From: Octopus vulgaris
Lineage: Eukaryota
Reading direction: 5' to 3'
Length of the DNA: 64,000 nucleotides
Assembly: GCA_951406725.2 (NCBI GenBank)
Contig: OX597817.1
Location: 149,978,001-150,042,000, forward strand
The position numbers and the translations under genes are program-made. The notes beneath the pieces were generated by a model. That model was given only the letters and a program-made list of their open reading frames with translations. It made no database searches and was not told the DNA's origin. Below, piece by piece: positions 10,487-44,830 of this stretch. Each line of letters opens with the position of its first letter. The first letter of the stretch is position 1.

Positions 10487-11200
10487 TTAACCCTTAAACA
10501 TTCAGATTATTCTGTCAAAATTAATATTTATTTATTCATATTGTAGGGAAGGCACATGGCTTAGTGGTTAGGGTGTTCGGCTTATGATTGTAAGGTCATG
10601 AGTTCAATTCTCAATGATGTGTTATGTCCTTGAGCAAGACACTTTATTTCACATTGCTCCAGCCCACTCAGCAGGCAAAAATGAGTTGTGCCTATATTTC
10701 AAGGGGCTGGCCTTGTCACACTTGTGTCACACTGAATCTCCCCGAGAATTGCGTTGGGGTTACATGTGTTTATGGAGTGCTCAGCCACTTTCACATTAAT
10801 TTCACGAGCAGGCTGTTTCGGAGTGCTTACATTCATATTTTGAATTAATCATGCATTATCTTATAGCTTCAAGATTTCAATGAATGTCATTGTAGGGTAA
10901 GCGTGAGAGGCTGGATCTGGCCAGTTTGAACATAAAACAGACAGATGCAGCACAAAATTTTGTCAGTAAACAGGTCACTGTCTCAAAGCAACGAAAATAT
11001 TTTGACAAATTAAATTTAAATGTTAAAGTGAAACTAACGGTTTTTGTGTGTTTCTTAAATCATTTATAAACACCTTCCATGCTGCAATTGTTTTCATTCC
11101 AGCACACGATCTCAGATCAAGTCACTCGCTATGCAAGTACATCTCCGTAAGACAGAATATTTTTGGCTGGATATGACTCGTTTAAAAGTTAAAGGGTTAA
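10487..11200. mobile_element. piggyBac-like MITE (M1) carrying nested family C SINE (10547-10822) and hammerhead element (10946-11149)
   Basis: Ends ttaaccctt / aaagggttaa; the M1 body resumes on each side of both insertions. Confidence 0.75.
10959..11009 (+). ncRNA. Degenerate minimal hammerhead-like motif with G3-C8 core
   Basis: tttgtca-GTAAACA-ggtcac..gcaac-GAAA-atat-TT-tgacaaa: 7-bp stem I, palindromic aatatt stem III; G5 appears mutated to A. Confidence 0.5.
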
Positions 11201-11856
11201 GTAAGAAAATAATGATTCCATAAACAGGTACAAAGCCATACATTCTTGAGGTGGGTGGAGAGGTAGCAATCGTAGATTAAATTAATTCTCTGTTATTTGA
11301 CTAATACTTTATACTATTAATCCTAGAAGAATGAAAGGCAAAGTTGACCCCAGTCATATTGTGAAATAAGATCCACAGCCTATCTAAAGCTCTAAATAAG
11401 GGTTTAGTAATCCTACAAGAGACATGTGCGAACCAAGACAGCTGTGTAAACTAAGCCAGCTGCATCGACCAAATCCTTGTGAATGAATTTGGTAAACTGA
11501 AAGAAAGCCATTGCATGTGTATTAGTGCATATGTGTGTGTCTTTGTGTATGTGTGCATATATCTAGTCAAATCTAGTGGTGGTCTGTTCTTGCACAGGTC
11601 CTGTGCATGTGAGCCTTCTCCAGCACTCTCTATATGACCTAGGAGGGCCCATGTCCTCCTCTGCCACCATTATGTGAATCTAACACCTTAACCATTAGGC
11701 CATGTGCCTTCAACTGATACACAGTAATTACTATAAGCTGTAGATAATATCAGCGACCAATCACTATGCAGTTCTATATTTAAGAGATGAGGAATTATGT
11801 ACATTATTTACGTTATTTACATTTGACGGATATTTATCCTCATCTTGTTTGTTGTT

Positions 11857-11902
11857 AACACAACATTTCAGCTGATATACCCTCTAGCCTTCATCAGGTG
11901 TC
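11857..11902 (-). ncRNA. Minimal type-I hammerhead ribozyme motif
   Basis: Minus strand gacac-CTGATGA-aggct..agct-GAAA-tg-TT-gtgtt. Confidence 0.7.
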
Positions 11903-12128
11903 TTGGGGAAACTTCGAACCTGGGTTCTCATTCCTAAGGTATTTTTCGATGTTGTTGTTATTATTATTATTATTCAGGTCACTGTTTGGAATCAAACTCG
12001 GAATCTTGGAGTTAAGAGCGTGGGCTACTAACCCCAAGATTCAGACTTCAATTCTAAGCAGTGACCTGAATAATAATAACATCGAAAAATACCTTAGGAA
12101 TGAGAACCCAGGTTCGAAATTTCCCCAA

Positions 12129-12174
12129 GACACCTGATGAAGGCTGGAGGGTATATCAGCCAAAACGTTGTGTT
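12129..12174 (+). ncRNA. Minimal type-I hammerhead ribozyme motif (G12A)
   Basis: gacac-CTGATGA-aggctg..cagcc-AAAA-cg-TT-gtgtt. Confidence 0.65.
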
Positions 12175-12957
12175 AATAACAAACAAGATAAAGACAAATA
12201 TCTGTCAAATGTAAATAATGTAAATAATGTACCAATCATTATATGATCAATATACAATATCAAACAAAACATTTAAGATGGACATGCATGACAAGTGTTT
12301 TGAACATCCCAATAATAAATCTACTATACCATACTACTTTGGAAGTGAGTTTATCTCATTAATTCTTCTACCACCAGAAATCAGTACAAGTGTTTTAATT
12401 CTAGTAATTGACTAATTATATTAATGCGGCCAGTTTTCTCCACAAAATTGTAAATTCTGTTTCTATTACTGTAGATCAATAATTCATAAAAAATACAAAA
12501 AGAAGCCGATGTACTCTGGGTGGTTCCCAACCAAGTAAATTATTTTCAAATACATCCACCCATTATTGTCGTTTTTCCAGACTAGAATATAAAATTTACA
12601 ATTTATGACATGCAACATCCGACAGAGCTTCTTCTTATTCATCAGAATAATCAATGTTTTCTTGTATTCATTGCTTAAATAAACCACGTAGAATGACTAA
12701 ATTTTTTATACAAAACAACTTAGAATCTATTATTCCACAGCAATTTGTATTCAGCAAGCGATGAACATACATTTCGGTAGCAAACATTGAAATTAATGAG
12801 TTTTGTGATGTAGGTTACCCTTATTGATTACTTTCTGAATTTACTAAATCCTGATTTGCCATACCCAAGAATATGGCGCTTACATCTAGATAGGATCAGC
12901 TGCCTGCTTTGATTTTCAAAGAATTACAATAATTCTTAAAAAAAAAAAATGTAGCCA

Positions 12958-13118
12958 ATGCAGGCATGGCTGCGTAGTTAAGAAGTTTGGTTTATAGTCA
13001 TGTGGTTTTGAGTTCAGTCCCACTGAACGGCACCTTGGGCAAGTGACTTCTACTATAGCCTTGGGATAACCCATGCCTTGTGAGTGAATTTGGTAGACAA
13101 AAACTGCATGGAAACCTG

Positions 13119-13169
<51 letters not shown>

Positions 13170-13385
13170 TGCATGTATGTCTCTCTCTCTCTCTCTCACA
13201 CTGTGTTTGTTACTCACCACCACTTGACAACCAGTGGTGGTTTATTTACATTTCAGTGACTTAGCAGTTCAGCAAAAGAGACTGATACAATAATTACCAA
13301 ATTTAAAAATTAACTACTGGGGTATATCTATTTACCTAAAACCTTTCAGGGACGTAGAGCCCCAGCAAGTAAAAGAGTAAAGATA
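12958..13385 (+). mobile_element. Family B SINE, diverged
   Basis: tRNA head, gcaccttgggcaagtg, (GT)n, tail ending agtaaaagagtaaaga. Confidence 0.75.
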
Positions 13386-13974
13386 AAAAAACAAAAAGAA
13401 AACTACCCCAAAAGCTGTTTGTAATCCTTGCCAATCCAACATTTCTTTATTGATAGCACCCACTTCTAACCAGGATAATAGTGAACAATACAATGGAATT
13501 ATTATGAACTACAAATAGTTTCAAAAACTCAGCAACATGAACCACCTTCCAATGTCATAAATATATAAATCTTTCCACAATTATTTATCAACCTACACCT
13601 TCTTAATTTCTTTGTGGTATCTTAAACATACTTAAAAATGGATGAGTTGAAAATGACATTTTTTTTTTTGAAACCCTTTCTTCCCTGTGAAGCATATAGG
13701 CCACCAGCAACTTTTCCCCACTGTTCTTAACTCTGGGCTATCTTTCTCTGACAAACAGTCTTCCTTTCCCAGGTCTTGGTTTTGAACTGTTATTGATGCT
13801 TCTATAACACTGCTATTTTTCTAGGTAGGTGTGCTGGTCCTATGCAAGCCCAATTTGACTTCTGGGAATAGGTGATCCATATTAGTTTGACCTGCTCAGC
13901 ACAAGAAGCCTACTAGAAGTTTGTGCTCTACAAGTATATCTCTGAGGGTCATTGAAGCATACAGGTCTTTTGTG

Positions 13975-14428
13975 GACGGAACCTATGAAAGAAGTAGACC
14001 AAGGTAGACATGGGATGAGGTGATGAAATGTGATCTTTGGATTTGAGTCTAATGGGGGTGATGACAAGTGACTAGGACTTCTGGCAAATGACTGTGCTTG
14101 AAAAGACACAAGCTAAAATCATGGTCATGGTCTAGTACTGGTGACTTGCAAATGGCACCTGTGCCAGTGACATGTGAAAGGTACTTGTGCCACTGACATA
14201 AAAGACACCTGTGCCAGCGACACCTAAAAAGCACCCATGCCAATGGCATGTAAGAGACACTGTGTACACTCAGTGGAGTAGTTAGCATTAGGAAGTGCAT
14301 GAAGCCATAGAAATCAAGCCAAAACACACTGGAACCTGGTGCAGCTCTCTAGCTTACCATCTTATGACTAACCCAAGTCAGCATGGAAAACGGACATTAA
14401 ATGATGATGTGGATAATGATGATGATGA
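13975..14428 (+). mobile_element. Degenerate RTE ORF end and 3' UTR (family D)
   Basis: Similar to 55800-56388 (..agacatgggatgaggtgatgaaa..), with D tail. Confidence 0.7.
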
Positions 14429-14956
14429 AGCCACCACACTGCAAGAAGTACAGGACCTTGTGGTGGATCAAAGATGACATAGTCGATACGTATCCATGTA
14501 CAACAGTTACTAACAAACCGTGAAAGAGACTCAACCAGATCATTTCAACCTACTAACAATAGCAGCTCATTCTTCCTCAAAACACATTCAAAGATCTTTA
14601 AAGAAGAAAAGAAGCATTAGATAGAGTCATCCTAGATATACTATACCTATAAAAAAAAAGCAAAATTTTACAACTGAATTGGCTCTGATCATGCCTGCTT
14701 GACTAGGAATGGACTAGCACTAAAGAAGAATGGTAACAGCATAGCTGTACATGCATGTGTGTTGTCAACTATGTGTGTATGTGCAGTGAAGAAAGGGTAT
14801 GAATAAAACATGCTTGCTAATTCCAGCTTCAGAATAATTTCGGCATGTCATTTGGATAATGCTTGTGAACTACAATACACAGCTATAGCATGGTACCAGA
14901 ATGTTAATAATGGTTTATAGTTCCTGTTTTTTGTCATATATATGCGGATATGCACA

Positions 14957-15027
14957 TGTATGTATGTATGTATGTATGTATGTATGTATGTATGTATGTA
15001 TGTATGTATGTATGTATGTATGTATGT

Positions 15028-15067
<40 letters not shown>

Positions 15068-15076
15068 ATGTATGTA
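14957..15076. repeat. (TATG)n/(TG)n compound microsatellite
   Basis: Seen directly. Confidence 0.95.
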
Positions 15077-15743
15077 TTTTATCTTTCTATTCCAGATTGT
15101 TCTTGGTGAATAAAGCTATGTCTTATTTCATTCAATTTATTCAGTAAGAAAATAAATAAATAAATAAACACAGCAAAAAATTTGTTGGACATATTATTTA
15201 CATCATGAATTATTGATGGACGATAACTTAGAGAAGCTGAAAGGATTTTTCAAACCTGAGAAATTTAATGCCAATCCAGTTTCTACCACCACCAAAGAGT
15301 GGTGCCACTAGGGACATTTCTGAGATCCATTGTATCTTATTCACCAAACAGGCTTCACACTTCCATTAATTATTTATCCTCAACAGTTTATGACTATCTC
15401 CCTGATGCCGCTAACTACAAAGCTGTGATTCAGATACTTGAAACATTATATTATGACATCTAATGAAGTTTTTGCGTGCCATCTTATGACAAGCAGCTGC
15501 CAAGTATCACAGGAATAAACTGACAAGTTCCTTCAGGCATTGAAATTACAATCATTGCTAAGAGTTTGCAATGCTATCAATGTGGGTCAGCACTATGGAG
15601 AATCACTTAGGGATACATTATTACAGGTCTTGCAACTCGGTACATCTGACTATGCTTGCTGGAAAACACAGCTTTGGATTTGAAAATGTCACACTTTGAA
15701 ATCCACAATAAACAAACAACATGTACAGTAATATGGGATATCT

Positions 15744-16283
15744 AACCCTTTCATTGTCAACCTGCTTATGACTGTCCCCTGGTTCTATAATACAAACTTC
15801 CTATTTTAGTAACTGTGCTTCCCAACCACATGATTCTGGGTTCAGTCCCACTGTGTAGCACCCTGGGCAAGTGTCTTCCACTATAGCCTGGGGCCAACCA
15901 ATGCCTTGTGGGTGGATTTGATAAACAGAAACTAAAAGAAGTCTATCGTATATATACATGTGTGTGAGTGTATTTGGGTCAGTGTTTGTCCCCCACTACC
16001 ATTTGACAACCAACCTAGTGTTTACATCTCCATAACTTAGCAGTTTGACAAAAGAGACTCATAAAGTGAGTATAAGCCTTGAGAAAAAAAGAATAAATAC
16101 AGGGGTGGATTCATTCAACTTAAAATTCTTCAAGGCGATGCCCCAGCATGGCTGTAGTCACATGACCAAGACAAGTAAAAGATAGAAGATTTCAAACACC
16201 AGTTTAAAAATGACCAAATTATTTTATTAAATTCTTAATTATTTTCAGAATTCATTGAAATAAAGACAGTGTCTCTCAACAGA
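15744..16283. mobile_element. Degenerate piggyBac-like MITE (M2) with a nested family B SINE (~15812-16188)
   Basis: taaccctttc start, gtaacaaaaagggt end, family B sequence inside. Confidence 0.6.
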
Positions 16284-16532
16284 AATATGTAACAAAAAGG
16301 GTCACTAGCAGGCCATGATGTTGTTACCAGACAGATCTCATCAAATTAAAGCTATTTGTGATAACATCTTGGTTGCTACCTATAACAACAATCACAGTCT
16401 TTGATTTTTATGCACCAAACATCATTCTTGTCATACTTGTTCATATTCATTAAGCCAGGTGTAGAAACTGTGATGAACAGTGTCAATAAAGATAGGTGTA
16501 TGTGTATATATATACATATATATATATATATA

Positions 16533-16992
16533 TGTTGAAATAATAATTCATCTCTCTCTGTAAAATGCTGCGGTTTTAACCGTTAATACATGGTGTTTGT
16601 CAATTTTAACCCACACCGGTGGAAAGGGGAGAGCAGAAATTCTTCGCTTGCATATTCGAATTTGGTAGCACTTTTAGTTCGAGCAGAATTCTAGAAGTGA
16701 TAAGAAGCCGAAAGGGTATGCTCCCAACTTTCAGTGTTCCCAAATCCGATACAAGGAATTCTGAGCTGACGAAAGAAATGTCGAATTGACTAATCTAGAA
16801 ACGTACGTTCTCAAATAACCTTTGCACTTGATTTTTTAATGTTTTTTCCCCCATACCTTTGTGAGTTGGTTTAGGCAAGCACTATCTGAGAGAGATCTTC
16901 TTTAAGTATTAGAAATAGCTGAAGAAATTTCTTTAGCTGCTATTTCTAATGAGTTCAGTATGTGGCAAAGTAATTTATTTTACTAAGCCCTT
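16533..16992 (+). mobile_element. Short Penelope-like element in (TA)n carrying an intact hammerhead
   Basis: Relatively CpG-rich ~460-bp segment between TA runs; hammerhead at 16762-16813. Confidence 0.6.
16762..16813 (+). ncRNA. Type-I hammerhead ribozyme motif with intact core
   Basis: tgag-CTGACGA-a-aga(aat)gtc[gaatt]gac(taa)tct-a-GAAA-cgtacg-TT-ctca; palindromic stem III; predicted GUU cleavage after 16809. Confidence 0.75.
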
Positions 16993-16999
16993 ATATATA

Positions 17000-17066
<67 letters not shown>

Positions 17067-19446
17067 CATATATATATATATATATATGTTTCACTGCATT
17101 CTGGTACATAATCCATCACTAATTCCAACACTTATGATTGCCATAATAAGTGGCTTTGCTACTGGCATTTCAAGATTGTCTCTTCAAAATTGGGAAAGGA
17201 AGATTTACAAGTCTTTGTAAGACATTAGTAGTTCAGAATTCTTCATCAGTAAATTTATCATAAAAGAACAATCACTTATTAAGCATCATTCTTCAAAGAT
17301 GTGACTGCAGCTGACTCTTCCCTGTCCACTTGTATCCATGGTTACTGCTTGAACAACTTCAAACTTCTAAAGGCATGGATGGTAATCAGATTGACACTTG
17401 GTTGAACCACACAAAGAAGCTGCTTGCCATAATGTATCTAATGGAGAGAGTGCTCTGCCGCCCTCTTATCTTAGGATGATGACAAAAGTGTGCTTGGCTG
17501 AAGCTGCTACACAATTATCTGGCTGAGGAAAATCTCTTGTAATAACTCAATACAAACTATGTGTGCATGTGTGTGTGTGCATGTGTGTGTGTGCATGTGT
17601 GTGTGTGTGCATGTGTGTGTGTGTGTGTGTGTGATTATCTTTTAATGGCCATATTCCATGCTGGTATGGGTTGGACAGTTTAACAGGGTCTAATGTGTCC
17701 AGGGACTGCATCATGCTCCAAAGTCTGCTTTGGGATCGCTTCTATGGCTGGATGCCCTTTCTAATGCCAAACACTTTACAATATATACTGGGTGCTTTTC
17801 TTGTGCTACTAGCACTACTGAGGTTGCCATGCAGCTGACAAATCTACAAGACCTGGGAGGTGGGGCATTATGCTTGCAGATAGGGCTTAAGGTATGTAAT
17901 AAGGGATTGGGGCAGAGTAGGTTCTAGTTCTAGAGGGGCAACATGGCTACTCGCATTTGGGAGAGAGTTATATATAAATTGTTAGCAGCTACAAAGAAGT
18001 CAAATAGTCGTGATGAGGTGTCCAGGTGGCATTTCAAAGTACAGAGAGAGTAGGGGTGGGGACAGAGAAAGTAGGAGTGAGTGATCTGTAGGGAGTGTAT
18101 GGAGGAAAGAAAAGGGGAGAGGGAACCCTGCCCATGTGGGCAGGGTTAAATGGGTTATTTCTTTTCTCCATGATGGGTCAGGGAACCACACCTCACTCAC
18201 AAGTTTAATCTTTGACCCTTCCTTGCACCAGCAACTTTACAGAATGTAGTGGGTGCATATTTTAAAGGGACCAGCATCAAGCAGGTTGCTATGTCTTCTG
18301 TGGAATCTTCATGACTCTACGCACAAGAGTGTATTGAGTACATTTTATCATGGCAGTAGAATTAGAGAGGATGGAAGAGAGAGTGATGGGTAGCAAGAGG
18401 TGGATAAATGGCAAGAGTGAATAATGGATGTCAGTTCCAAGCAGCCAAGGAGGAATACTGATAGAGTGTGTGAGGTATATACAGATGTGACGAGATCTCC
18501 TGGGAATAGCCTCAAGATGGCAAAAGAACTGGAGTCATGACAGTGAGAAAGGAAAGGATGGAATATTGGAGAGAGGGTCATGGAATTCTAGTTACACTAG
18601 AAGCAATGTATGGTGAGCCAAAGGAGATCCAGTGTTATCCTTAGTTACATCAGCATCTAAGAAGAGTTGAGATGAGAGATGGGCAATAGAGGCACAAACA
18701 CTAGAGACATGAGTAATAAAGTTGGGGGCAACAGAAATATAGATGACAGGGGCATGGAGAGGTGAGTGATAGGGGTATTAGAAGCTATATGGGGGTGGGG
18801 TCAAAAATGTAGCCATAACACTTTGTATATGCATACACACACACAGAGATTACCATTACAACAAACACACACGTGTAGGTATGTGTGTGTATTTTGGAAG
18901 CTGACTGTTGTGGCTGGTCAGAGAGTGACCACTGGTTTCATACTTATTAAGCACTTAGCCATATAGGTGCTTCATTTTGGATTTACGATCTTCTAACAAT
19001 TCACAAATATATTTGTACATATATACACACATACATATACACATTCACACATACATACACCTATAATCATATAAGTTTGAATGTATCGTACAAGCCTAAA
19101 TAGACACTTAGACACATATACATATATACATATGCATACATATTCACGAAAACATGTTCCACAATGCCTGGACGAACACTTGTTCCACAATGCCTGGACA
19201 GGAAGGTATGTCTTCTCCTGCAGAGTGTGTCACCAATCCACAGGCTTTTTGCCATCTCTTCAAGGTGCAACAACTTCAAATACATCTTCACCACTTTGTC
19301 CCAAGCATTCCTTGGTTTTTGTCTTCAGCCAATTTCATTCACTTTACACATGCAACAGGGACACATAAACCACAGACATCACCCCCACATCACCCCACCC
19401 CATTCAGCAGTAAACAGAATCATGCACCTTATGTTCTTTATCTACC

Positions 19447-19493
<47 letters not shown>

Positions 19494-19629
19494 ATTGTAT
19501 AATATACGCTTGTTGAGAATGAATGACAGACATGAATAAAATAAAAGGTGTTTTGCCATTTCCATCTTCAGAACAGTTTCGATGTGTTGCTAGGTTAACA
19601 TTTACAAACTACAATACACATCTATATAA

Positions 19630-19750
19630 TATGCTGCTAGGATGTGACTATTGTTTATAATTTTCTCTTACATGTCATGGAACTGTTATTTCATCTTGCT
19701 CTCGCTCTGTTCTGGGCGGTTGTTGCTGAATAAAGCTATTTCCCTATTCA

Positions 19751-19760
<10 letters not shown>
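19630..19760 (+). repeat. LTR-like repeat, similar to 20240-20360 and 15078-15135
   Basis: Shared acatgtcatgg..gttattt.atctt..gttgttgctg..taaagctatttccctattcaa, with AATAAA in this copy. Confidence 0.45.
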
Positions 19761-19786
<26 letters not shown>

Positions 19787-19814
19787 TCCAAACAAGACAG
19801 GTACATAGACACAA

Positions 19815-20237
19815 ACTTTTTATTTGTTTCAGTCATTAGACCACGGCCTTGCTGGGGTACCACCTTGAAAATATGTACCCCACTACTTATTTTTTTTAAG
19901 CCTGATACTTATTTTGTTACTGTCTTTTGTCAAACTGCTAAGTTACAGAGATGTAAACACACCAACACCGGTTGTCAAGAGGCGATGGGGGAGGGGGGAC
20001 AAACACAGGCACAAAGACACACATACACGCATGCATGCACACATGCACATTTGTGTGTTTGTATATATATATTCGATGGGCTTCTTTCAGTTTCCACCTG
20101 CCAAATCCACTCACAAAGCTTTGGTCAGTGCGAGGCTATAGTAGAAGACACCACTCCATGGTGCCATGCAGTGGGACTGAACCTGAAACTATGTGGTTTT
20201 GAAGAAACTTCTTACCACACAGTGACATCTGTACCTA
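19815..20237 (-). mobile_element. Family B SINE
   Basis: Reverse complement of family B. Confidence 0.8.
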
Positions 20238-21512: not shown

Positions 21513-21538
21513 GAAGGCATGCTTGCCTTTCCACACTT

Positions 21539-21788
21539 TTAACCCTTTCAATACCAACCTGTCTGAGACTGCCCTTGGCTCCTTTATGCCACAAACTTCC
21601 TGTTTTAAAAGGATCTCAAAACTTTCCACCAAAATTTCATGTTACTTTATGTTCCAAACACCAGCTTACTAATGACCAAGTTATTTTACAATATTCTTCA
21701 TCATCTAAAAATTTAACTGGAATGCAGGCAGTGTGTTTCAACAGAAATATGGTAACAAAAAGATTAAAATTTATAAAATGAAAGGTTA
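21539..21788. mobile_element. Degenerate piggyBac-like MITE (M2)
   Basis: ttaaccctttcaatacc start; body homologous to 28365-28593. Confidence 0.65.
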
Positions 21789-23222: not shown

Positions 23223-23299
23223 CTATATATGTGTATGTGTATATATATGGAAAAAAAGTCAAGGTAGAAAATGCTAAAATAATTTTATAAAAAACATTT

Positions 23300-23336
23300 C
23301 AGTACTGGTTTCAATCATTGAGACTTTTTCAACTGT
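23300..23336 (-). ncRNA. Minimal hammerhead-like motif with U3-A8 core
   Basis: Minus strand acag-TTGAAAA-agtc[tcaat]gatt-GAAA-ccag-TA-ctg. Confidence 0.55.
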
Positions 23337-23678
23337 AAGTATGGAAAAGAATTAAATTTTGGAAAAATTAAATGAAAAGTTTTTGTTTTAAAAGAATATT
23401 TGCATAGTATTCAAATATGAGGGGCATGTTCCTACTACCATTCACTTGACCATTTAACATCCTACTACTATCATAGCACTCCCGCATTATTCTTCTCCTT
23501 CTCCTCCTTCTTCTTCTCTGCCAAGAATTCACAATGACCTCGACCCCACAAGAGTAAACAAGAGAGACAGAGACAGGCAGAAACAGGGAAAATGCCCCTT
23601 ATATTTGAATATTATGCAAATATTCTTTTAAAATACTTTCCATTTAATTTTTCCAAAATTTAATTGTTTTCCATACTT

Positions 23679-23714
23679 ACAGTTGAAAAGTCTCAATGAC
23701 TGAAACCAGTACTG
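23679..23714 (+). ncRNA. Minimal hammerhead-like motif with U3-A8 core (one A short)
   Basis: acag-TTGAAA-agtc[tcaat]gact-GAAA-ccag-TA-ctg. Confidence 0.5.
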
Positions 23715-23802
23715 AAATGTTTTTCATAAAATTATTTCAGCATTTTCTACCTTGACTTTTTTTCCATATATATATATACATATCAACTTGTGCGTTCCTT
23801 TT

Positions 23803-23840
<38 letters not shown>

Positions 23841-30809: not shown

Positions 30810-31283
30810 ATCAAATTTGATGACTGGCATCCATGCTAGTAGAGTACTAAGAGTACCATCCAAACATGATCATTGCCAGAGCAGCTAACTGGCTTCCGTG
30901 CTGGTGGCACATAAAAAGCACCATTCGAGCATGATCTTTACCAGCGTTGCCTTACTGGCACTTGTGCCGATGGCACGTAAAAATCATTCGAGCAAGGTTG
31001 TTGCCAGTGCCGCTGGACTGGCTCCTGTGCAGGTGGCACATAAAAAACACCATTTGAGCATGGCTGTTGCCAGTACTGCCTGGCTGGCCCTCATGCCAGT
31101 GGCATGTAAAAGCACCCACTACACTCTCGGAGTGGTTGGCATTAAGAAGGGCATCCAGCTGTAGAAACTCTGCCTGATCAAGATTGGAGCCTGGTGCGGC
31201 CATCTGGTTCACCAGTCCTCAGTCAAATCGTCCAACCCACACTAGCATGGAAAGCAGACGTTAAACAATGATGATGATGATGA
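30810..31283 (+). mobile_element. RTE 3' UTR fragment (family D) with VNTR
   Basis: VNTR units, D core and (GAT)n. Confidence 0.85.
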
Positions 31284-35159: not shown

Positions 35160-35275
35160 TGGGGATATGACTGGACAAGTGTCAGGAGTAGCATCCAAAT
35201 TGGACAGACGAATGTTGAGATGGTTTGGCCACATGGAGAGAATTGATGAGGAGTGGATGGTAAGGAGAGGGCATA
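35160..35275 (+). mobile_element. Small RTE-like LINE fragment
   Basis: LDRRMLRWFGHMERIDEEWMVRR matches the RTE C-terminal RLRWxGHV motif. Confidence 0.6.
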
Positions 35276-37193
35276 GAACAGGGCTCGCTCCTTTGTGCTG
35301 GAAAATGAATAGAATACCTGGTGTGTGTCTTGTGGCTACCCGTTCCTAAAAAAAAAATGGGGAATTGGCCTGGGTATATATATAATTATACTTAGAAAGA
35401 GTATAAAATCTTTAGATTTCTATTTCCCCTTTCTCTTAATTCTTGAGCTTTTGATGAATAAATTGTTATTGCTTTCGAGATAAGTTAATGTGAATATAAT
35501 ATGGCTTTATGGCGCTTTGTTTGGGGTTGTATGTCTTTCATTTGAAATCATATTAGAACGGACAGTACTTTTACTTAGGTAAAATAGATTTTAGTATTAC
35601 ATCGGGATGAGTTTTTACAAAAACTAATCTTAATCAGTGGTAGGAGCTCTCTTTTGGCTAGGGAGCAACTAGGTAACCTCCCTAGTGTTGGTGCAACAAA
35701 AAATAGTAAAAGGAAGATCCAGTATTCTCTGTAAAGTGGCTGATGCTAGGAAAGGCATCCAGCTGTAGAGACCATGCTGAAACAGAGACACTGGAGTAAG
35801 ATGCAATCCTCTGACCTGTCAAATCCTATCAAACCATCCAAATCATGTCAACATATTAAAACGCAAAAGACGATGATGATGATGATGATGATGATGAAGA
35901 AGACTTATACACTAGAAATTATTTATACAGTGAGGTTTGTGAAGAGAACTAGAAATAGTACATATTTTGGCTCATTCAAATTGAATGTAAATATAATTCC
36001 ACAAAAAAGAAAAGACATCTTGTATATGAGAAAGCCAAATGCAAGTATTGTACCCACACCCACCCACACTCATCCATGCACATACAAACACACACACACA
36101 CACATTTTGTTTGAGAGAGGAAATTTTTTCTTTTTTTTGGTAAGTTCTTAGAGAGTGTTTATTTACAGTAACAAAATTCGACCAGCTGACGTTCATTCAA
36201 TAATTGGCCTCAATCTAACTTAAATATCAACAATTCATGTGCCACACTGTCAAATTCTTCTAGAACTAACCTTGAACTTCAATTTGTTTTTGCTTCTGGC
36301 TGCTCAGTTATTTCACACAGCAATCAGTATGGAAAATATGTAAGCAACAAACAAGAAATTGCTCAAATAAAAAAGACTAACCGTTATAATCATCATTATC
36401 ATCATCATTATTTAATGCTTACTTTTCCATGCTTGCAGAAATTAGATGGAATTTAACGAGGCAGATTTTCTATGACTAGATGCCCTTTCTATTGTCAAAC
36501 CTCGCCTCCTTCAAAGTAAGTTAATATTTTCCCATAGACACTGAACAAAATTTCCTCCATCTTCAAGTTCTGAGTTCAAATTTCACCAAAGGCAACTTTG
36601 CCTTTCACCCTTTTGGGGGTTGATAAAATAAGTACCAGTTGCACACTGGCCTTGTGCTAAAATCTGAAACTGATATTCTCCCATAGATAAACATGTTTTT
36701 CATGTAAGACCAGAAATAAACAACCTTGTTTATATGGCAATGATACTTGCTTACAACCATCATTTGATACTGTGATATCAAAACAAGGATACATACAAAC
36801 AAACATACAAACAAACAAACAAACAAACAAACACACACACACACACACACACACACAACAGGCTTCTTTTAGTTTTCATCTACCATATCCACTCACAAGG
36901 CTATAATAGAAGACATTTTCCCAAGGTGCTGCAGAGTGGAACTGAACCCAAGACCACATGACTGGAAAGTAATCTTCTTGACCACACAACCACACCTAAA
37001 CAATGAAAATTACAATTGCTTTAATTTGTAAGATTTAATTTGTAACATTTTGTTCCTTTGCCTCACTTGTTAATCTGGTATCTGGAACATTAATTTACAA
37101 GGAATTTTCATGAATGACTTCAATTTAGATCACTTTAAGACAAGGAGTTTGTAAGATAGAAGCAGGGGTAGCTTAAGAATATTAGTATCAAAA

Positions 37194-37361
37194 AGGTGTA
37201 GAAGTGGCTGTCTGGTAAGTAGCTTGCTTACGAACCATAGTTCCGGGTTCAATCCCACTGCGTGGCACCTTAGGCAAGTGTCTTCTATTGTAGCCTTGGG
37301 CCGACCAAAGCCTTGTGAGTGGATTTGGTAGATGGAAACTGAAAGAAGTCCATCGTATATA

Positions 37362-37405
<44 letters not shown>

Positions 37406-37609
37406 ATGTGTGTGTATATGTTTGTGTGTCTGTGTTTGTCCCCCCAACATTGCTGGTGTGTTTACGTCCCTGTAACTTAGCGGTTCGGCAAAAGCGACCG
37501 ATAAAATAAGTACTCGGCTTACAAAGAATAAGTCCTGGGGGCAATTTGCTCGATTAAAGGAGGTGCTCCAGCATGGCCAAAGTCAAATGACTGGAACAAG
37601 TAAAAGAGT
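37194..37609 (+). mobile_element. Family B SINE, well preserved
   Basis: A-box-like tggctgtctggt, B-box ggttcaatccc, CORE-like gcaccttaggcaagtgtctt, (TA)n, tail aagtaaaagagta. Confidence 0.9.
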
Positions 37610-37874
37610 AGGTGTACAACCTTCAGTGATATATAAGAGTCAGGCTTAGAGAGAGGAAGGAATGGGGATAAAATCATTATTAGGTTGGATACTGGCCTGA
37701 ATCCTTGCAAAAGAATAGATTGTGCTAAAGACAGTTACAGACAAGATTATGGTGTTCACCTGAGCAACAAGTAAGTCTATTACTGAAGAGACCCTAATCC
37801 TCACCCCTGACAGGCTCTAATACAGTTTCCATCAGTCAAATTTTAGTTAGGGGTTTTGGTTAGCCCAAGGCTAG

Positions 37875-38099
37875 TTAACCTTTTAGCATTTAAATTGACA
37901 ATATCCGGTCCAAATATTTTGTTTTATCTTCAAACTGACCAGGACCAGCCTCTCACACCTGTCCTGTGATATAATTCTAAAAATATACAGTCATAACTTC
38001 AAAAATCTCAAAGCTACAAGATAATATGGGATTAACTAAAAATAATGTGAATAAATAATCATTACATTTGAAAGAGAAATATGAATGTTAAAGGGTTAA
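37875..38099. mobile_element. piggyBac-like MITE (M1)
   Basis: ttaa-ccttttagcatt..aatgttaaaggg-ttaa. Confidence 0.8.
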
Positions 38100-38214
38100 C
38101 AACTTTCAACCAAGAAACCCCAGACTGGGATTGAACAAGAAACCAAGTATGTGCAAAGTGAAGTTCTAAACCACACAGCCATACCTGCTCAATGCAGAAA
38201 CAAAATCTCCTTCA

Positions 38215-38444
38215 TTAACCCTTTTGTTACCGTATTTATTTTAAGATGCTCTGTGTTTCTTTCAATTAATTTTGAATATAACAAAGAATTTAGTAAAATA
38301 ACTTGGTTATCATTCAGCTAGTGTTAGGAACATAAAGTGTGACTAAGGTTTGGAGGAAGAATTTAATTCAAAACTTATGAAAACAAAACATTTGTGCTAC
38401 AGAGCCAGAGCCGGTTTCAGCTAGGTTGGTATTGAAAGGGTTAA
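38215..38444. mobile_element. piggyBac-like MITE (M2), reverse orientation
   Basis: ttaa-cccttttgttac..gaaaggg-ttaa. Confidence 0.85.
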
Positions 38445-38580
38445 ACACTCTACATTCTTTCAAGTGAGGATTGACGAGTTGTGTAACTCAAGAAAAGTTT
38501 GCCAATACACTGAAAAATTAATGTGGGAACCACAACAACAACAATAGCATGCCATGCGAAATGCTTAGCCGTATTTTATT

Positions 38581-38975
38581 TGGCGGCAAGATGGCAGAAA
38601 CGTCAGCATACTGGGCGAAATGCTTAGCATATTTCGTCTGCCACTACATTCTGAGTTCAAATTCCGCCGAGGTCAATTTTGCCTTTCATCCTTTTGGGGT
38701 TGATAAATTAAGTACCAGTTATGCACTGGGGTCGATGTAATCGACTTAATCCGTTTGTCTGTCCTTGTTTGTCCCCTCTGTGTTTAGCCCCTTGTGGGTA
38801 GTAAAGAAATACGTATTTCGTCTGGCTTTACGTTGTGAGTTCAAATTCCACCAAGGTCGACTTTGTCTTTTATCCTTTCGGGGTCGATAAATTAAGTACC
38901 AGTTGCATACTGGGGTTGATCTAATCAACTGGCCCCCTCCCCCAAAATTTTGGGCCTTGTGCCTAGAGTAGAAAA
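38581..38975 (+). mobile_element. Dimeric family A SINE (tail 2 then tail 1)
   Basis: Junction aagaaatacgtatttcgtctg at ~38804-38825. Confidence 0.8.
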
Positions 38976-39407
38976 TGATATTGTTTTAAATCTTAGATTG
39001 GAAAACAAAGCAAAATATTTGGAAACATCTAAAACCTGAAAGACTTTGAAAGCTGTTTTAATGTTGCTTTAGGTGGAATAAGAGACAAATCTCAACCTGA
39101 ATACAATTCCAGTCTATCTCACGTAGTTCTTTCAGCTGAACTGTTTTCCATTCCCTGGCAGCTAACTGAACTAAGACATGTAGAATTAAGTACACAGACT
39201 GAAAGATTTTTATTGCATTTCGACACTCACAACACTTATGAACTGGCTCCATATATTCAACTCAGCTTTGTTTCTTTTCCATTATACAACAGAATGAGAA
39301 ACCTGGATGAAATATGCACTAACAAGCTTTGCAGAAAGTCACGTAACCATAAGAGTAATAAAGAAGAAAAAAAAACAAAAAAAAAAAATCAATATTATTA
39401 TTTATTT

Positions 39408-39639
39408 CAGTGGTTCTCAACAGAGGTCCATATATGATTTTGTTAAAATTTTTGCACTGTAAACTGTGTAATACTTCAACAATACACATTTTTATTTTAT
39501 TGCAATTTCTAATAATATTTGATTATAAAAATACAGTTAGATTTTCTTTTTATACACATGGAATGGCTATGGAGATTCAGGAGAGTAAAAGACAAAGCAA
39601 AGGGGTCCACAGGAAGAAAAAAATGGTTGAGAACCACTG
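39408..39639. mobile_element. hAT (Charlie/MER5-like) MITE
   Basis: TIR cagtggttctcaac / gttgagaaccactg; no intact 8-bp TSD. Confidence 0.7.
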
Positions 39640-40645
39640 GTCTTTTTTACTAGAATTTATCAAAACCATATCAGTGAAATCGCTAATCAGAACACCATTA
39701 TAAAGTGATAGGGGAAAGGAGAGGGAGGGAAAAGTCATTTCTGAAATAATGAACATAAAATGGTTTACTTTAATGAAGGTATCAGGAGGACACAAACTTT
39801 CTCAAGCAAAAAAAAAAAAATCGATGCATGTATGCATAATGTATATATTCATGCCTTTTCATCTCTCTTCAACCTACATCAATTATGACAAGAAAATATC
39901 TGCAGTCCCCTTTTTTTTTCTCCCTTAGATTCTATTTTTTCCAAGCAATCTAAGAAAGACAGCACAACAAGTCTCATCAGAAGAACAAAAATAAAAAAAA
40001 TGAAAATGTCCACTTATTTTTATGAATTATGTAAAGCAGACGAAGGAAAATAGAAAAAGTAAAAAAAATACAATAAAGCAAAGGAAAATATTTATTATCA
40101 TAATCCAACATGTTTCTCTTGTCGTATTTGAATATTGAACAAGGCAATATGCATTTTTACGTGCACTCAAATCTCTCTCTCTCACTCTTACAAGCAAACA
40201 TACACACACATTCAGGTACACATACATGCACACATACTAGTTTATATTATTCTAATTTATATTCTAAGATGTAGCTGCTGGCAGCCAACAAAATCCTTGT
40301 GCAGAGGAGATGCTGTTCCATTCTTGTGGATAATGAGTCTGGAAAGTCACAAGAAAAATATGGTCTCTTTAGCAGACAGCTTTTGTGAAGACAATAAAAG
40401 TGGTTCTTCATTTTTACAACAAATAGTGTGTGTGTGTGTGTGTGTGTGTATCGAGAAAGGAGGAGGACGACAAGGAGGAGGAGGAGGAGGAGGGGAGGAG
40501 GAGGAGGGGAGGAGGAGGAAGAGTGCTTTTTCACCCTAATTTTCTTCCATCCATCCCAACCCATTGTTTTTTTTTTCATTTATAAAGAATAAAGAAGCAG
40601 GAATCACTGCAAGCAGACCAATACATAGGAACGTTCAGCACAGAA

Positions 40646-40762
40646 TAAATAAATAGATAAATAAAGCAAGAACCAAAAAAAAATACAGTATGAGTCCAGG
40701 CCTAAATAAATAGATAAATAAAGCAAGAACCAAAAAAAAATACAGTATGAGTCCAGGCCTAA
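40646..40762. repeat. Exact 57-bp tandem duplication
   Basis: taaataaatagataaataaagcaagaacc(a)9tacagtatgagtccaggcc twice. Confidence 0.9.
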
Positions 40763-41211
40763 TGCAGAAATATGTTTGCAGCAGATAACAAATGCAACTA
40801 AACAAGTTTTCAATGGATTACAAAAAAAAAAAAGGATGAAAAAGAAAAACAGTTGCATTTTATAGAAGGGAAGGAAAGATGGTGGGGGAAGCAAGTTGAA
40901 AAGGATAGCCATTAAAATTTAGAGTGAAATTGAATAGCAAAGCTATGCAATAAATAAATATCTTAAATAGAAATTGGTGTTTCTGTTGATAGATTTAATT
41001 TAATTTAATAAGTCAGAACTGCTTCGTTACACAATTTCTTTTTTTTTTTTTAAGTTTCAAGCAAATGTTTGTTTACTTCTTACTGATGATGTAGCAAGGA
41101 CTATTGATTTACCCACCGTCCTAAGGAGGAGAATGACAGGGAAAAAAACAAAGCAGAGGGGAAAAGTCAAACATGGTGGGATTTCTACTAAGAAGTAATG
41201 ATCAAGGTATT

Positions 41212-41640
41212 GATTTCAAATTTTGGCACAAAGCCAGCAATTTCAAGGGTGATTGTAAGTTGAAAGTTGATCACATCAACCCCACGGTTTAACTGGTTCT
41301 TGTTTTATCAACTCTGAAAGGAGGAAAGGCAAAGTCAACCTCAGTGGAATTTGGACACAGAACACAAAGACAGACAAAATGCTACTAAGTATTTTGCCCA
41401 GCATGCTTTTCTTTGATTCTTTTATTCCTTTCAGTCATTTGAGTCATTTGACTGTGGCCATGCTGGAGCACTACCTTTAGTCAAACAAAATGATCCTAGG
41501 ACTTGTTCTTTGTAAGCCTAGTACTTATCCTATTGGTCCCTTTTGCCGAACCACTATGTTACAGGGATGTAAACACACCAACATCAATTATCAAGCAATG
41601 GTGGGGGAACAAACACAGACAAATATACACACACACACAT
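41212..41640 (-). mobile_element. Family A (41212-41405) and family B 3' part (41410-41640) SINE copies
   Basis: Reverse-complement matches. Confidence 0.75.
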
Positions 41641-42830
41641 AAATATATACAGGATGTTCAAAATTTAAAAGGAAAAATTAAGTATTGAGGTCACTCTGAT
41701 TAAACCCTTCAAGGCAGTGCCCCAGCATGGCCACTGTCCAATGACTAAAACAAGAAAAAGAGAAAAGAGAGCATTTAAGATTTTTGGTTTTATCAATCCT
41801 GCAGAAAACTGAACCTATACAAACTTCCTCGTAGACTGGTTAAACATTAGAAAACGTCAGTGACCAAATCTGTTGTCTGACTTTAATTCACTTTGAATCA
41901 ATTTCACTTCACTTACATGCACAGTAGTAATGCTTATGATAAAGTTTTAATGAAAAAGTTTGTTATGGATGTTGAAAGATGACTACAAGGTAGCAGAAGG
42001 CTTTGTTGATCATGAACATAATGTCTCGTTAATATGAATCCACCAGAAGACCAATAAAATACATGAACAGAAAAAGTTCAGAAGGTCTTTAAACAGAGAT
42101 AAAAATATTTTATGCACAATATAGAGAATGTGTGGGTTGCTGTCTCTACTTACATGTTTGTGCGTGTATGAGAGAGAGAGAGAGAGTAAATGTGGAAGTG
42201 TGAGAGTATTGTCTCTCGAACCACAATATAGTCAAGTGTAATGTCCTAGTACAATAGAGATAATCTCTGAAAAGAGAATTTCAGGTTATGAATTGAAATT
42301 TGAAAAGACTAGAAGAACTGCAGAGATGCATGGAGAACAGCCATTCCATTGACTGAAAATTTTATATTCTCCTCTACATACATGTATAATATCAAGGGGA
42401 GATTCATCGATTGGTGGGGATCCAATGCTTATGATCAGTGAAATAACAATACATTGGATGAGCCAACTTTTCCCAAATGTTCTTTAATCTTTTCTATACA
42501 ACAACAAAGCAATTGCTGATTGGTCACAAATGGTGTCAAGACTAAGCTTTGTACATGATACAGAGGATTTAAGCAATGGAGTGGAGAGCTAGCTGTCCAC
42601 TACAAAGTCATTTAGGAGTCCACTTCAGGAGCATATATTTCAGTGTTTGATTGTACAGCATAACACATAGAGCAAGTAACTTAGGGATCGGCAATGCTTA
42701 ATGAGTGGAATTGGGCAGATACAAGGTGTGCAAAAGCTTTTCATATTTGTATTCATATAGGAGAGAGAGAGAGGAGGAGAGAGAGTGTGTGTGTGTATTT
42801 GTGTAAAATGATACATACATACATATATAT

Positions 42831-43075
42831 ATAACGGGAAGCTTTATGAAAATAAACAAGACGAAGGCAGGTTTACGGAAATAAACAAAAGACGAAGGCA
42901 GGTGGAATACAAACAAACAATTGTATTAGTATGGCGCTCAGGAATATAAATAAAACAAGTCTTTTACGTTTTGAGCCTATGCTCTTCAACAGAAAGATAC
43001 ACAGAAAAGAAACACAGAAAGAAGGAGAGAAAAAAATGCGTGCAGAGGCTAGCGAATCAACATGGTGATCTGATT
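42831..43075 (-). mobile_element. Short hammerhead-bearing Penelope-like repeat, related to 44388-44830
   Basis: Shares the agagc..gctc stem and ttcctgagcg..taataca downstream; TA-flanked. Confidence 0.6.
42961..42996 (-). ncRNA. Degenerate minimal hammerhead motif
   Basis: Minus strand cttt-CTGTTGA-agagc[atag]gctc-AAAA-cg-TA-aaag (A6U, G12A). Confidence 0.5.
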
Positions 43076-43218
43076 TCGGCCAGAAGTCAAAGATCAAACG
43101 TGAGACGCAAGAGCGAAATTAGGGAAGGTAATAGGGTTAAATGACCTCACCCCAACATAAGAGTGTGTGTGTGTATGAGAGAGTGTTAGTGCGTATGAGG
43201 TCTGGACATGTGTATGTA

Positions 43219-43258
<40 letters not shown>

Positions 43259-44267
43259 ATATGTGGGGTTTAGTACACTGGTGATCTAAACGAATAGGGA
43301 CGCTGAGTAACTGCTATAATTGGTCATCCATTAGGTTTCCAGTTCACAGCTGGAGCTGGAGATAGGGATCCATATAAGGCCTCCGTGTTAGCAGGTATAT
43401 ATTATATCAGAGGAAAAAGGACAATAAAAACCAAAGCAGGACAAGTATCTCAACTCATTTATAATAATTGAAATTATTATAAATACATATGTATGCACAC
43501 ACACACACACATGTATAAATGCACATACATATGTGTGCTTGTATGTTATATCTTTTGCCAATGTGACACATTTTTGCAGCATTTGTTCTGCTTGGCTGCA
43601 CATTCTAATCACTCCCACCACCTGAAATGCAGTGAACAAGTGACTGGCCAGCAGGAATCAAATAACCACACACACTAGTATGAGTGTGTATATATATCTA
43701 TATATATAAAACTCAACTTGTGTGTCTCTGCAAAAATAGATAATGTGATTGTTTAGGCCTTATTCTCTCTATCACCCTTATCTCCCCACTCCTACTTTCA
43801 AATTATCTCCACTGACCACTAAATGGTTCATTTTCCCTTATCTATATCTTTGTTTTTCTTTTTTCTTTCTTTCCTTTATTCCTCTCTTCCTGTTTTTTAT
43901 TATATTATTTTATTATTTTTCTTCTTACTTTCTTCTCCTTATTCTCTCTTTTTTCTCATTCTTCATTCTTCTCTTCCTGTTTTCTATTTGACCCTACTAA
44001 TACACTCCCTATTTTTAGGTCACTTTAAATAAAACCCTTGATTCAATAAAACTGTATATAAACTTGGAATGACCAATTTTAAATACAATTGGATTTTACT
44101 CATAAGGTATTGGAATCTTACATGTATAACCACTCTGGCTAAAAAAAATGGATCTACAAATGCAATATCCCTACATATCTCACATCTATTTTCTTTTATT
44201 TCCTCCACTTCACTCTCTATTTTATATCTTATCTAAATTAACTATTTCTTAACCATCCTCTCACGCC

Positions 44268-44315
44268 GTCTCTGATAAAGGGATATAATAAATATCCTGG
44301 AAACAGCTGTAAGAC
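44268..44315 (+). ncRNA. Type-I hammerhead motif with palindromic stem III (G8A)
   Basis: gtct-CTGATAA-agggatat[aataa]atatcctg-GAAA-cagctg-TA-agac. Confidence 0.7.
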
Positions 44316-44387
44316 CTATCTATAAATGTTCTAAAATCTACACAGCCTTGGCTTTTTAACTCATTACAAAAAATAATTTATATATAT

Positions 44388-44571
44388 GTGACCACCTGTG
44401 TATCATTAGCAATTTTCTTTCTCCATCTTCCCTTCTTTGGACTTTTTCTATATTTCTGATGAAGAGCTCCGCTCAAAACGTGAAATCCTTTTTTTTTTCC
44501 TTTCCTGAGCATCCAATAATACAGTATTTGTACCATGTCCTCGTGTTGTTTTTTCTTGGTTGTTTGGATTG

Positions 44572-44627
<56 letters not shown>

Positions 44628-44830
44628 ACCACATGTGTATCGTTGGCGATATTTTCCCTCCATCTTGCCTTCCTTGGATCTTTCCTTTTCCTATGTTTCT
44701 GACAAAGACTCCACTCAAAACGTTAAACCCTCCTTCTTTCTTTCCTTTCCTGAGCGTCCAATAACACTATACTTGTTCCATGTCCTCGTGTTGTGTTTTC
44801 TCTTTGTGTTTTCATGTTTGGATTAACTAA
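44388..44830 (+). mobile_element. Two tandem ~237-bp hammerhead-bearing repeats separated by (TA)n(TG)n
   Basis: Units start gtgaccac at 44388 and 44625; motifs attt-CTGATGA-agagc[tcc]gctc-AAAA-cg-TG-aaat (44452-44486) and gttt-CTGACAA-..-AAAA-cg-TT-aaac (44695-44728). Confidence 0.7.

Follow-up and report, generated by a model that had tools for sequence, protein, structure and literature searches.

The window analysed here is a 64,000-nt stretch of the Octopus vulgaris genome (GCA_951406725.2, contig OX597817.1, positions 149,978,001–150,042,000 of the forward strand), in which ten short motifs share the order stem I, core, stem II, GAAA, short stem III, UH and stem I'. All ten lie where a first-pass annotation of this DNA had placed them, those at 11857, 23300 and 42961 being on the minus strand (Table 1). 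They represent seven insertions and seven repeat families (A–G): the motifs at 11857 and 12129 form one inverted arm pair and those at 23300 and 23679 another, with one insertion per pair, while those at 44452 and 44695 are a head-to-tail pair. The annotation had counted about six unrelated elements. Six is indeed the number of lineages, since family D (42961) shares homology with family F (44452, 44695), this pair scoring z = 11.2 as compared with z ≤ 2.4 for the remaining 20 family pairs, but the families and insertions number seven and the homology of D and F means that not all are unrelated. The repeats behind each motif have 1,421–3,960 first-look candidates in this genome. A (TA)4+ run lies within 230 nt of seven of the ten motifs, so that the proposed association with (TA)n holds for most, the exceptions being the copies of families A and G. 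A trimmed-probe search found no ORF fragment of a Penelope-like element in the window itself. The motifs are for the most part decayed end-pieces of several Penelope-type elements, each with a small RNA motif that is probably self-cutting.

Table 1. Hammerhead motifs and the insertions that carry them, in window coordinates.
Feature	Positions	Strand	Remarks
Family G short pLTR copy, ~210 nt	10943..11150	+	From the family's common 5' end point to its second 3' end point
Family G minimal hammerhead	10959..11009	+	G3-C8; 7-bp stem I; palindrome AATATT
Family A insertion	11766..12235	.	tRNA-like spacer flanked by inverted arms (11799-11962, 12069-12232; 92% complementarity)
Family A hammerhead	11857..11902	-	C3-G8; intact core, decay in stems II and III
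Family A rearranged tRNA-like segment (A-box/B-box)	11975..12068	.	Part of the A pLTR upstream of the hammerhead
Family A hammerhead	12129..12174	+	C3-G8; G12-to-A decay
Family B partial monomer	16533..16995	+	Young 557-558-bp non-coding tandem unit, between (TA)n runs
Family B hammerhead	16762..16813	+	C3-G8; extra A either side of stem II; 8-nt palindrome ACGTACGT
Family C insertion	23234..23785	.	Pair of inverted arms with (TA)n at their ends; short copies from an element with GIY-YIG frame upstream
Family C hammerhead	23300..23335	-	U3-A8; CpG decay in palindrome, C-to-T in stem II
Family C hammerhead	23680..23714	+	U3-A8; loss of one A, decay in palindrome
Family D short pLTR copy	42824..43215	-	Between (TA)n runs
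Family D hammerhead	42960..42997	-	C3-G8; family-fixed U6; G12-to-A in this copy
Family E 5'-truncated copy (3' UTR and pLTR)	43758..44386	+	Element with upstream GIY-YIG frame
Family E hammerhead	44268..44315	+	C3-G8; extra G before GAAA; 8-nt palindrome ACAGCTGT; G8-to-A in this copy
Family F pair	44388..44829	+	~200-240-nt head-to-tail units with (TA)n(TG)n between them; homology to D
Family F hammerhead	44452..44486	+	Canonical core; G12-to-A, G at position 17
Family F hammerhead	44695..44728	+	G8-to-A, G12-to-A, stem II deletion

Taken one at a time, the window copies are weak hammerheads. A strict descriptor recovered one of the ten motifs with no mismatch allowed (0–1 matches in eight shuffles) and two with one mismatch (0–4 matches in eight shuffles), and a loose descriptor without the palindrome rule gave five matches against 0–5 in shuffles. 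Neither the window nor 10 loci gave a match to a hammerhead family in Rfam, and the hammerhead shape was often absent from unconstrained monomer and dimer folds. The strict descriptor had an additional match in the window at 61003. With most window copies failing the strict descriptor, loose descriptors matching shuffles about equally and nothing matched in Rfam, the motifs might be taken for chance resemblances in AT-rich repeat DNA. We give this reading almost no credence, as it is refuted by the position of the motifs in the pLTRs of Penelope-like elements (described below) and by the family majority sequences, all seven of which are better hammerheads than the window copies.

Because individual copies are weak, the case for hammerheads rests on the families. 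In each of the seven the majority sequence restores the core and the stems, as the annotation had anticipated, and the 3–8 pair is kept within families; all have the minimal type-I layout with a CUGANGA-type core, the deviations being at position 6 in D and position 4 in E. Moreover, a descriptor that put no constraint on positions 3 and 8 found 181 matches in 1.2 Mb of loci, against 7–10 in three shuffles. The repeated families among these matches number 10, a count that includes three never-queried clusters and leaves out 12 singletons; one two-member cluster was removed beforehand as a simple-repeat artefact.

Comparison with the majorities also separates decay from family state. Nine of the ten window copies differ from their family majority, largely at CpG, in agreement with the view that most copies are decayed; that at 16762 alone matches throughout. 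Among the cores originally listed, GTAAACA (10959) is a decayed form of the family G core GTGAACA, in which G5 is present in 40 of 42 copies; the window copy has G5 changed to A, plus two CpG decays in stem II. The CTGTTGA core at 42961, on the other hand, is the family state of D (U6) and not decay. Non-CpG changes are only moderately rarer in the core (38/2252) than elsewhere in the motif (273/9820), these counts coming from copies that are non-independent and best-scoring matches.

Positions 3 and 8 form a contact of the active hammerhead fold, and the three covarying pairings claimed for this window each dominate a family or families of their own. C–G is the majority in five (A 44/44, B 38/38, D 43/43, E 24/28 and F 11/21 copies, with CpG decay having produced CA in another 9/21 copies of F), U–A in one (C, 33/36) and G–C in one (G, 40/42), and exact copies with G3–C8 number 6,323 in this genome. 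A Watson–Crick 3–8 majority was found in all 10 repeated families, the seven queried and the three unqueried alike.

Stem III, described as mostly palindromic, is a perfect palindrome in 7/7 majorities: ACGT in A, D and F, AATATT in G, ACCGGT in C, and the 8-nt sequences of E and B given in Table 1. Its predicted hairpins have 0–2 bp (+2.4 to +6.0 kcal/mol) and its predicted dimer helices 4–8 bp (−0.2 to −11.1 kcal/mol), the weakest, at only −0.2 kcal/mol, being that of family G. Within a single molecule such a stem would fail to close, and its pairing would be between two copies. An extra nucleotide after A9 and a G10.1–C11.1 pair are found in A, D, F and G, while the closing pair of stem II is A–U in C, G–U in E and, in B, an A–U flanked by unpaired As.

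The annotation regarded these elements as mainly non-autonomous, a view that most families contradict. A search for linked RT and GIY-YIG ORFs, which it had itself proposed, found them for A, C, D, E and G, which in other copies run upstream into such frames; both RT and endonuclease (EN) were found for D, G and A, and EN for C and E. Family D is ORF-linked in 13/43 copies and has a full-length relative of 4.3 kb at locus L211, where RT (Pfam RVT_1, E = 2e-8) and GIY-YIG lie between two pLTRs, with frames of 443 and 643 codons between the two hammerheads. Family G is ORF-linked in 6/36 walked copies; family A in 2/44 copies plus locus L226; C in 2/36 copies, its EN being preceded by a further frame; and E is linked in 4/30 walked loci, contiguously at 86–92% identity and with EN only. 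GIY-YIG Pfam scores were below the curated cut-off. For both E and G a non-autonomous status was considered and dropped once upstream walking had reached these frames, the ORF of G having been hidden behind a microsatellite tract until it was walked. As five families join Penelope-like RT and/or GIY-YIG frames, their motifs sit in short pLTR copies, and these joins, along with the majorities, uphold the assignment to Penelope-type minimal hammerheads.

A Cys-rich linker between RT and EN is a clade feature that separates Neptune/Nematis from Penelope/Poseidon (PMC8557442). Families C, D and G have this linker, the Cys pattern of E is different, and A has none between its RT and EN. We take the family A element to be Penelope/Poseidon-like, a clade name presumed from its motif. 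A permuted Naiad-type domain order was considered for A and dropped, as EN follows RT in L226, with an inversion. No tRNA was called by ARAGORN, either in the window or in 27 loci, and Rfam does not call the tRNA-like segment of A, so that its tRNA-like head is identified by box motifs only.

The ends of the copies bear on how they were made. Across families the 3' ends are fixed (often at two points), the 5' ends are variable or clustered, and every copy spans the scissile bond. In G the 3' ends form two clusters (52 and 50 of 115), in B the ends lie at unit positions ~249 and ~343, and an optional 3' tail arising from two RT start sites fits both (two families counted). In short G copies the 5' ends pile up and carry an extra G. 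Divergent inverted pairs within 1.5 kb occur at 9/35 loci of A, 8/31 of G, 6/28 of C and 7/22 of B, as well as at 1/27 of E, 0/42 of D and 0/21 of F.

Might all of the families instead be non-autonomous retrozymes, spreading via small circular RNAs produced by ribozyme cleavage and ligation? Family B looks the part: it is a pure head-to-tail unit of 557–558 bp with 96–100% identity, no frame above ~62 codons, and at least two hammerheads in 9/9 ten-kb loci (chosen for several matches). No RT or GIY-YIG ORF linked to B was found in the copies examined, and EN fragments beside the B arrays at L220 and L223 were rejected as its partner, since they have no DNA in common, either between themselves or with B. 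Family F also occurs as tandem units, and neither 21 copies of it nor 10 extended loci contained an ORF, although one may be masked by a microsatellite tract, as it was for G before walking. Available portions of two reports treat retrozymes as pLTR derivatives (PMC7229834; 10.64898/2026.07.22.740005), and B resembles the metazoan non-LTR retrozymes described there in its non-coding head-to-tail units, one type-I hammerhead per unit, low GC and probable Penelope origin. Its unit is, however, 558 bp long as opposed to 150–450 bp, and unlike the known retrozymes it has a minimal-type hammerhead, short arrays and inverted arms, and is known here from DNA only. Since RT/GIY-YIG frames adjoin A, C, D, E and G, whose sampled copies form no unit arrays, a retrozyme origin for all families is improbable; only B is clearly retrozyme-like, and F possibly so.

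Rather, we consider it probable, from sequence evidence, that the seven families carry minimal type-I hammerheads, five of the families being joined to Penelope-like RT and/or GIY-YIG frames, and that these hammerheads would cleave themselves slowly, depending on dimer formation or a protein, within the element RNA and not in the decayed window copies. In the mechanism we propose, the element endonuclease would nick AT-rich or (TA)n DNA, and RT would start inside the pLTR ~50–300 nt downstream of the ribozyme and copy uncleaved RNA, as suggested by every copy spanning the scissile bond. The likely job of the ribozyme would be the trimming of tandem or read-through transcripts and, in B, the release of the 558-nt unit.

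To what extent catalysis has been selected, as the annotation supposed for master copies, has a mixed answer. On the one hand, there is the Watson–Crick 3–8 pair of 10/10 families. On the other hand, U6 is fixed in D (43/43 copies), C4 is carried by 15/28 copies of E, where it is likely the master state, and a minor G3·G8 sub-lineage of G has 220 exact copies versus 159 for A8 and T8 combined, with a loop change common to 14/15 G3·G8 copies in the walked set; some lineages have thus spread even though their cores would be expected to cleave slowly or not at all. Together with the derivation of all genomic copies from uncleaved RNA, this amplification would suit motifs that are pLTR structural relics or protein-binding elements, catalysis being no longer selected in this genome, and the accessible part of PMC11167929 reports that catalytic mutants insert in vitro and that no RNA ends lie at the cut site. 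Yet ten families hold the Watson–Crick 3–8 pair via three base combinations, plus GAAA, UH and a palindromic stem III, and the pair is an active-fold contact whose engineered swap partly rescues cleavage by a Penelope ribozyme (same source). We regard the loss of selection as doubtful, and favour long-term but loose selection that would keep the Watson–Crick 3–8 pair across lineages while letting U6, C4 and G3·G8 spread.

Minimal hammerheads in the pLTRs of metazoan Penelope-like elements were described by Cervera and de la Pena (2014; PMC4209133). The sections of that paper available to us share with the octopus motifs a type-I layout, an extra base after A9, a short stem I, a palindromic stem III and a U3–A8 variant, as well as numerous divergent families in each genome, a predominance of single truncated copies, and opposite-strand pairs 100–700 bp apart; dimer cleavage with low activity was proposed there. 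The same sections yielded no entry for G3–C8, U6 or C4 cores or for octopus, and differ in that stem III palindromes of up to 8 nt occur here and stem II is flanked on each side by an additional base in B and E. In the Anolis Poseidon element PAc the ribozyme was not required for insertion in vitro (Frangieh et al., 2024; PMC11167929, in part). PAc has in common with our elements a pLTR hammerhead, two internal RT start sites yielding an optional 3' tail, an AT-rich target and insertion from unprocessed RNA; its 3' tails are 30–40 bp versus ~60 nt (G) and ~94 nt (B) here, and G3–C8, an engineered rescue in PAc, is the natural state of family G. Natural core variants surveyed by Perreault and colleagues (2011; PMC3088659) include U3–A8 covariation and slow A6C and U4C forms, while G3–C8 and A6U are absent as far as the survey was covered.

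Phage tblastn and PDB searches returned no match. Small dimeric hammerhead variants of Penelope-like retrotransposons, by title the same class and a dimer mechanism, have reportedly been described by Lunse et al. A natural G3–C8 or A6U core was not found in the literature searched, outside which lay Lunse et al. and Przybilski and Hammann (2007), and no report of Penelope 5' ends carrying an additional G came up in that search. The class is already known, and most features were described in 2014 (PMC4209133); the natural G3–C8 swap of family G appears to be new, though Lunse et al. may list it.

What the hammerhead does in Penelope-like elements is regarded as an open question (PMC8557442; PMC11167929). 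This one genome combines three 3–8 pairings with two widespread core deviations and a mismatched sub-lineage, all paired with element proteins of their own, and offers natural controls that address both the need for catalysis and the tolerance of the active site to change. CUGANGA-fixed descriptors and Rfam miss thousands of such motifs. More tentatively, the G3–C8 wild type (>6,300 copies), U3–A8, U6, C4 and G3·G8 could be read as a natural allelic series of the core, and the short G copies as complete cDNAs of a capped, uncleaved 5' end. If this proved true, the ribozyme would regulate the transcript, for example by cap removal, and would be dispensable for insertion.

All ten minimal hammerhead motifs described in the window by the first-pass annotation were found as stated on direct inspection, in a microsatellite-rich stretch (37% GC) spanning positions 149,978,001–150,042,000 of contig C4 in a 2.8-Gb animal genome. 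A strict descriptor recovered one of the ten at zero mismatches and two at one mismatch (shuffles: 0–1 and 0–4 matches, respectively), and Rfam gave no hammerhead match anywhere in the 64 kb. Single window motifs, taken alone, are unconvincing, and we therefore used each element as a genome-wide query, retained the best 30 loci per search, and aligned 21–43 further copies per family from the best-scoring matches. The majority sequence is a clean minimal type-I hammerhead in all seven families (A–G), and nine of the ten window motifs have decayed away from it, mostly at CpG, as had been supposed of most window copies. The ten motifs represent seven insertions; pairwise family comparison showed D and F to be homologous, leaving six lineages, in line with the original count of about six unrelated elements.

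Each of the three pairings claimed for core positions 3 and 8 (C-G, U-A, G-C) proved to be the majority in at least one family. With window copies included and each arm of an inversion counted, the pair is C-G in families A (44/44), B (38/38), D (43/43) and E (24/28); in F it is C-G in 11 of 21 copies and C-A, through CpG decay, in nine. The pair is U-A in 33 of 36 family C copies and G-C in 40 of 42 of family G, and an exact family G 20-mer with G3-C8 occurs 6,323 times genome-wide (reversed control, 0). As a less circular test, we scanned 1.2 Mb of extracted loci, enriched for families A–G by design, with positions 3 and 8 left free. This yielded 181 matches vs 7–10 in three shuffles, and the majority was Watson-Crick in all ten real multi-copy clusters, three of which lie outside the queried families (two U3-A8, one C3-G8 with C4).

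The ten motifs are genuine and belong to a class already known. The covered parts of PMC4209133 describe the same motif in the terminal repeats (pLTRs) of Penelope-like elements, including the U3-A8 variant, an extra base after A9 and a palindromic stem III; they also report that one genome can hold many families and that pairs occur on opposite strands. The G3-C8 of family G is absent from the portion of the supplementary alignment covered. PMC3088659, likewise in the part covered, records U3-A8 in nature, along with A6C and U4C variants that are slow. In the Anolis Poseidon element PAc, a C3G/G8C swap engineered into the ribozyme partially rescues cleavage (PMC11167929, in part), in contrast to its status as natural majority in family G. 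Neither natural G3-C8 nor A6U was found in the literature searched, although a 2017 variant survey or the remaining PMC4209133 supplement could hold them; the G3-C8 variant is probably unreported.

The suggestion that master copies were selected for catalysis holds in part: it agrees with the Watson-Crick majorities, but three lineages count against strict selection on the hammerhead. Position 6 is U in all 43 family D copies and A in all 21 of its relative F. The family E core has C4 in 15 of 28 copies and A5 in four, a decaying-CpG pattern, so its master likely had C4; in a second family E set the core starts CCG in 11 of 17. In family G, 220 genomic copies of the 20-mer carry G8, which leaves G3 unpaired, against 159 for A8 and T8 combined. 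Among walked copies, mostly from contig C16, 14 of 15 G8 copies have a common loop change yet differing ends, and thus at least one mismatched G3·G8 master seems to have retrotransposed; 29 of 30 G8 copies from contigs C1–C5 are without that change. Summed over families, the core shows a somewhat lower frequency of non-CpG changes (38/2252) than the remaining motif (273/9820).

The elements had also been taken for non-autonomous, which stands for family B but not for A, C, D, E and G, copies of which are joined elsewhere in the genome to reverse transcriptase (RT) and/or GIY-YIG endonuclease (EN) frames; family ORF probes found no Penelope fragments within the 64-kb window. Family D has a GIY-YIG frame 475–825 nt upstream in 13 of 43 copies, and in one locus (L211) two hammerheads 4.3 kb apart flank frames of 443 and 643 codons (Pfam RVT_1, E 2e-8; GIY-YIG score under cut-off). 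ORF links occur in 2/44 copies of family A, as well as in locus L226 (RT and EN), and in 2/36 of C. In family G they rose from none of the first 42 copies to 6/36 after walking across a microsatellite tract; locus L268 has RT, EN and hammerhead in that order, and the only named homologue of the RT is an Octopus vulgaris protein (55% identity), which points to an octopus-like host. For family E, none of 28 copies was linked, nor was any link seen on the same strand in ten extended loci, but four of 30 walked loci were linked, contiguous at 86–92% identity. Family F showed no ORF in 21 copies and ten extended loci. Copies of the 557–558-bp family B unit are 96–100% identical and lie head to tail in short arrays, and across nine ten-kb loci no frame exceeds about 62 codons; inverted pieces occur in seven of these nine, which were picked for multiple matches. 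Clade names for these elements are provisional and follow the linker motif only (a feature from the covered part of PMC8557442): families C, D and G have a Cys-rich linker between RT and EN, E has one with a different Cys pattern, and A has none. Between stop codon and hammerhead, the family A pLTR contains a tRNA-like segment; a pattern search located both its A-box and its B-box in 13 of 44 copies, and ARAGORN and Rfam made no tRNA call on it. The segment may serve as a Pol III promoter from which a SINE-like ribozyme RNA is transcribed.

Features of the window and of genomic loci (L numbers) extracted around family copies
Feature	Location	Strand	Observation
Hammerhead motifs	window, by family: A 11857, 12129; B 16762; C 23300, 23679; D 42961; E 44268; F 44452, 44695; G 10959		
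Hairpin, about 96 nt	window 4565-4660		near-perfect, GC-richer; several miRNA models match below threshold
66-bp tandem unit, dispersed arrays	window 6303-6591, 30889-31111, 51669-51968, 53067-53242		tandem-repeat analysis
tRNA match	window 10555-10616	+	weak (Rfam, 30.1 bits); probably head of tRNA-derived SINE
Family A tRNA-like segment	window 11975-12068; L226:1150-1230		
Strict-descriptor match	window 61003-61044	+	AT-rich, U3-A8 core; possibly chance
Splice-acceptor-like sequence	long G copies, just upstream of 5' point		by eye
G copy between direct repeats	L060, around 1500-1720		repeats about 13 nt, target-site-duplication-like
Older B subfamily	L082:4-1091		85-88% identical; unit again about 560 bp
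Different Penelope-like RT-thumb/GIY-YIG frame	L265:3194-4291	-	nested upstream of G copy; related to family E endonuclease (about 25-44% identity)
More hammerhead families in flanking DNA	L262, L158, L074, L056:1050, L193:820		two families U3-A8, one C4; canonical singletons whose stem III palindromes span 8-10 nt
Long G copies and G3·G8 sub-lineage	contig C16, about 0.6-49 Mb (L233-L258)		concentrated there among matches listed; suggests local source element

A (TA)4+ run lies within 320 nt downstream in most copies of C (36/36), D (40/43), F (19/21), E (25/28) and B (30/38), and less commonly in G (14/42) and A (5/44). The 3' ends of families G (52 and 50 of 115 alignments) and B each fall at two points, resembling the two RT starts of the Anolis element (PMC11167929, in part). 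At the 5' side, among 86 family G copies chosen without regard to upstream sequence, 33 stop at a single point 16 nt upstream of stem I, four extend beyond it, and 49 are either shorter or altered by mutation at this site. The base preceding this point (window 10943) is G in 16 of the 33, and C in long copies; the extra G may be a copied cap marking the transcription start. Microhomology is a live rival, because among 17 copies that lack an inverted arm only seven have the extra G, and the inverted tail has five letters in common with the 5' site. Splicing may be a third source of the pile-up, beside cap copying and microhomology.

In computed folds, stem III forms no stable hairpin in any family, a 4–8-bp helix is possible between two copies, and free folding often prefers non-hammerhead shapes. 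As far as the cited sources were covered, Penelope minimal hammerheads cleave weakly and are proposed to act as dimers (PMC4209133), and in the Anolis element cleavage needs the element protein and is dispensable for insertion (PMC11167929). The inverted pairs of the window, with arms on opposite strands, could not dimerise within one transcript; the F pair could, though both of its copies are broken. The folds, families, ORF links and end patterns are established, and a role for cleavage is proposed: the motif would serve to trim tandem or read-through transcripts, with loose selection maintaining it over the long term, and insertions would be copied from uncut RNA. Families A–G provide a useful natural series of hammerhead core changes.
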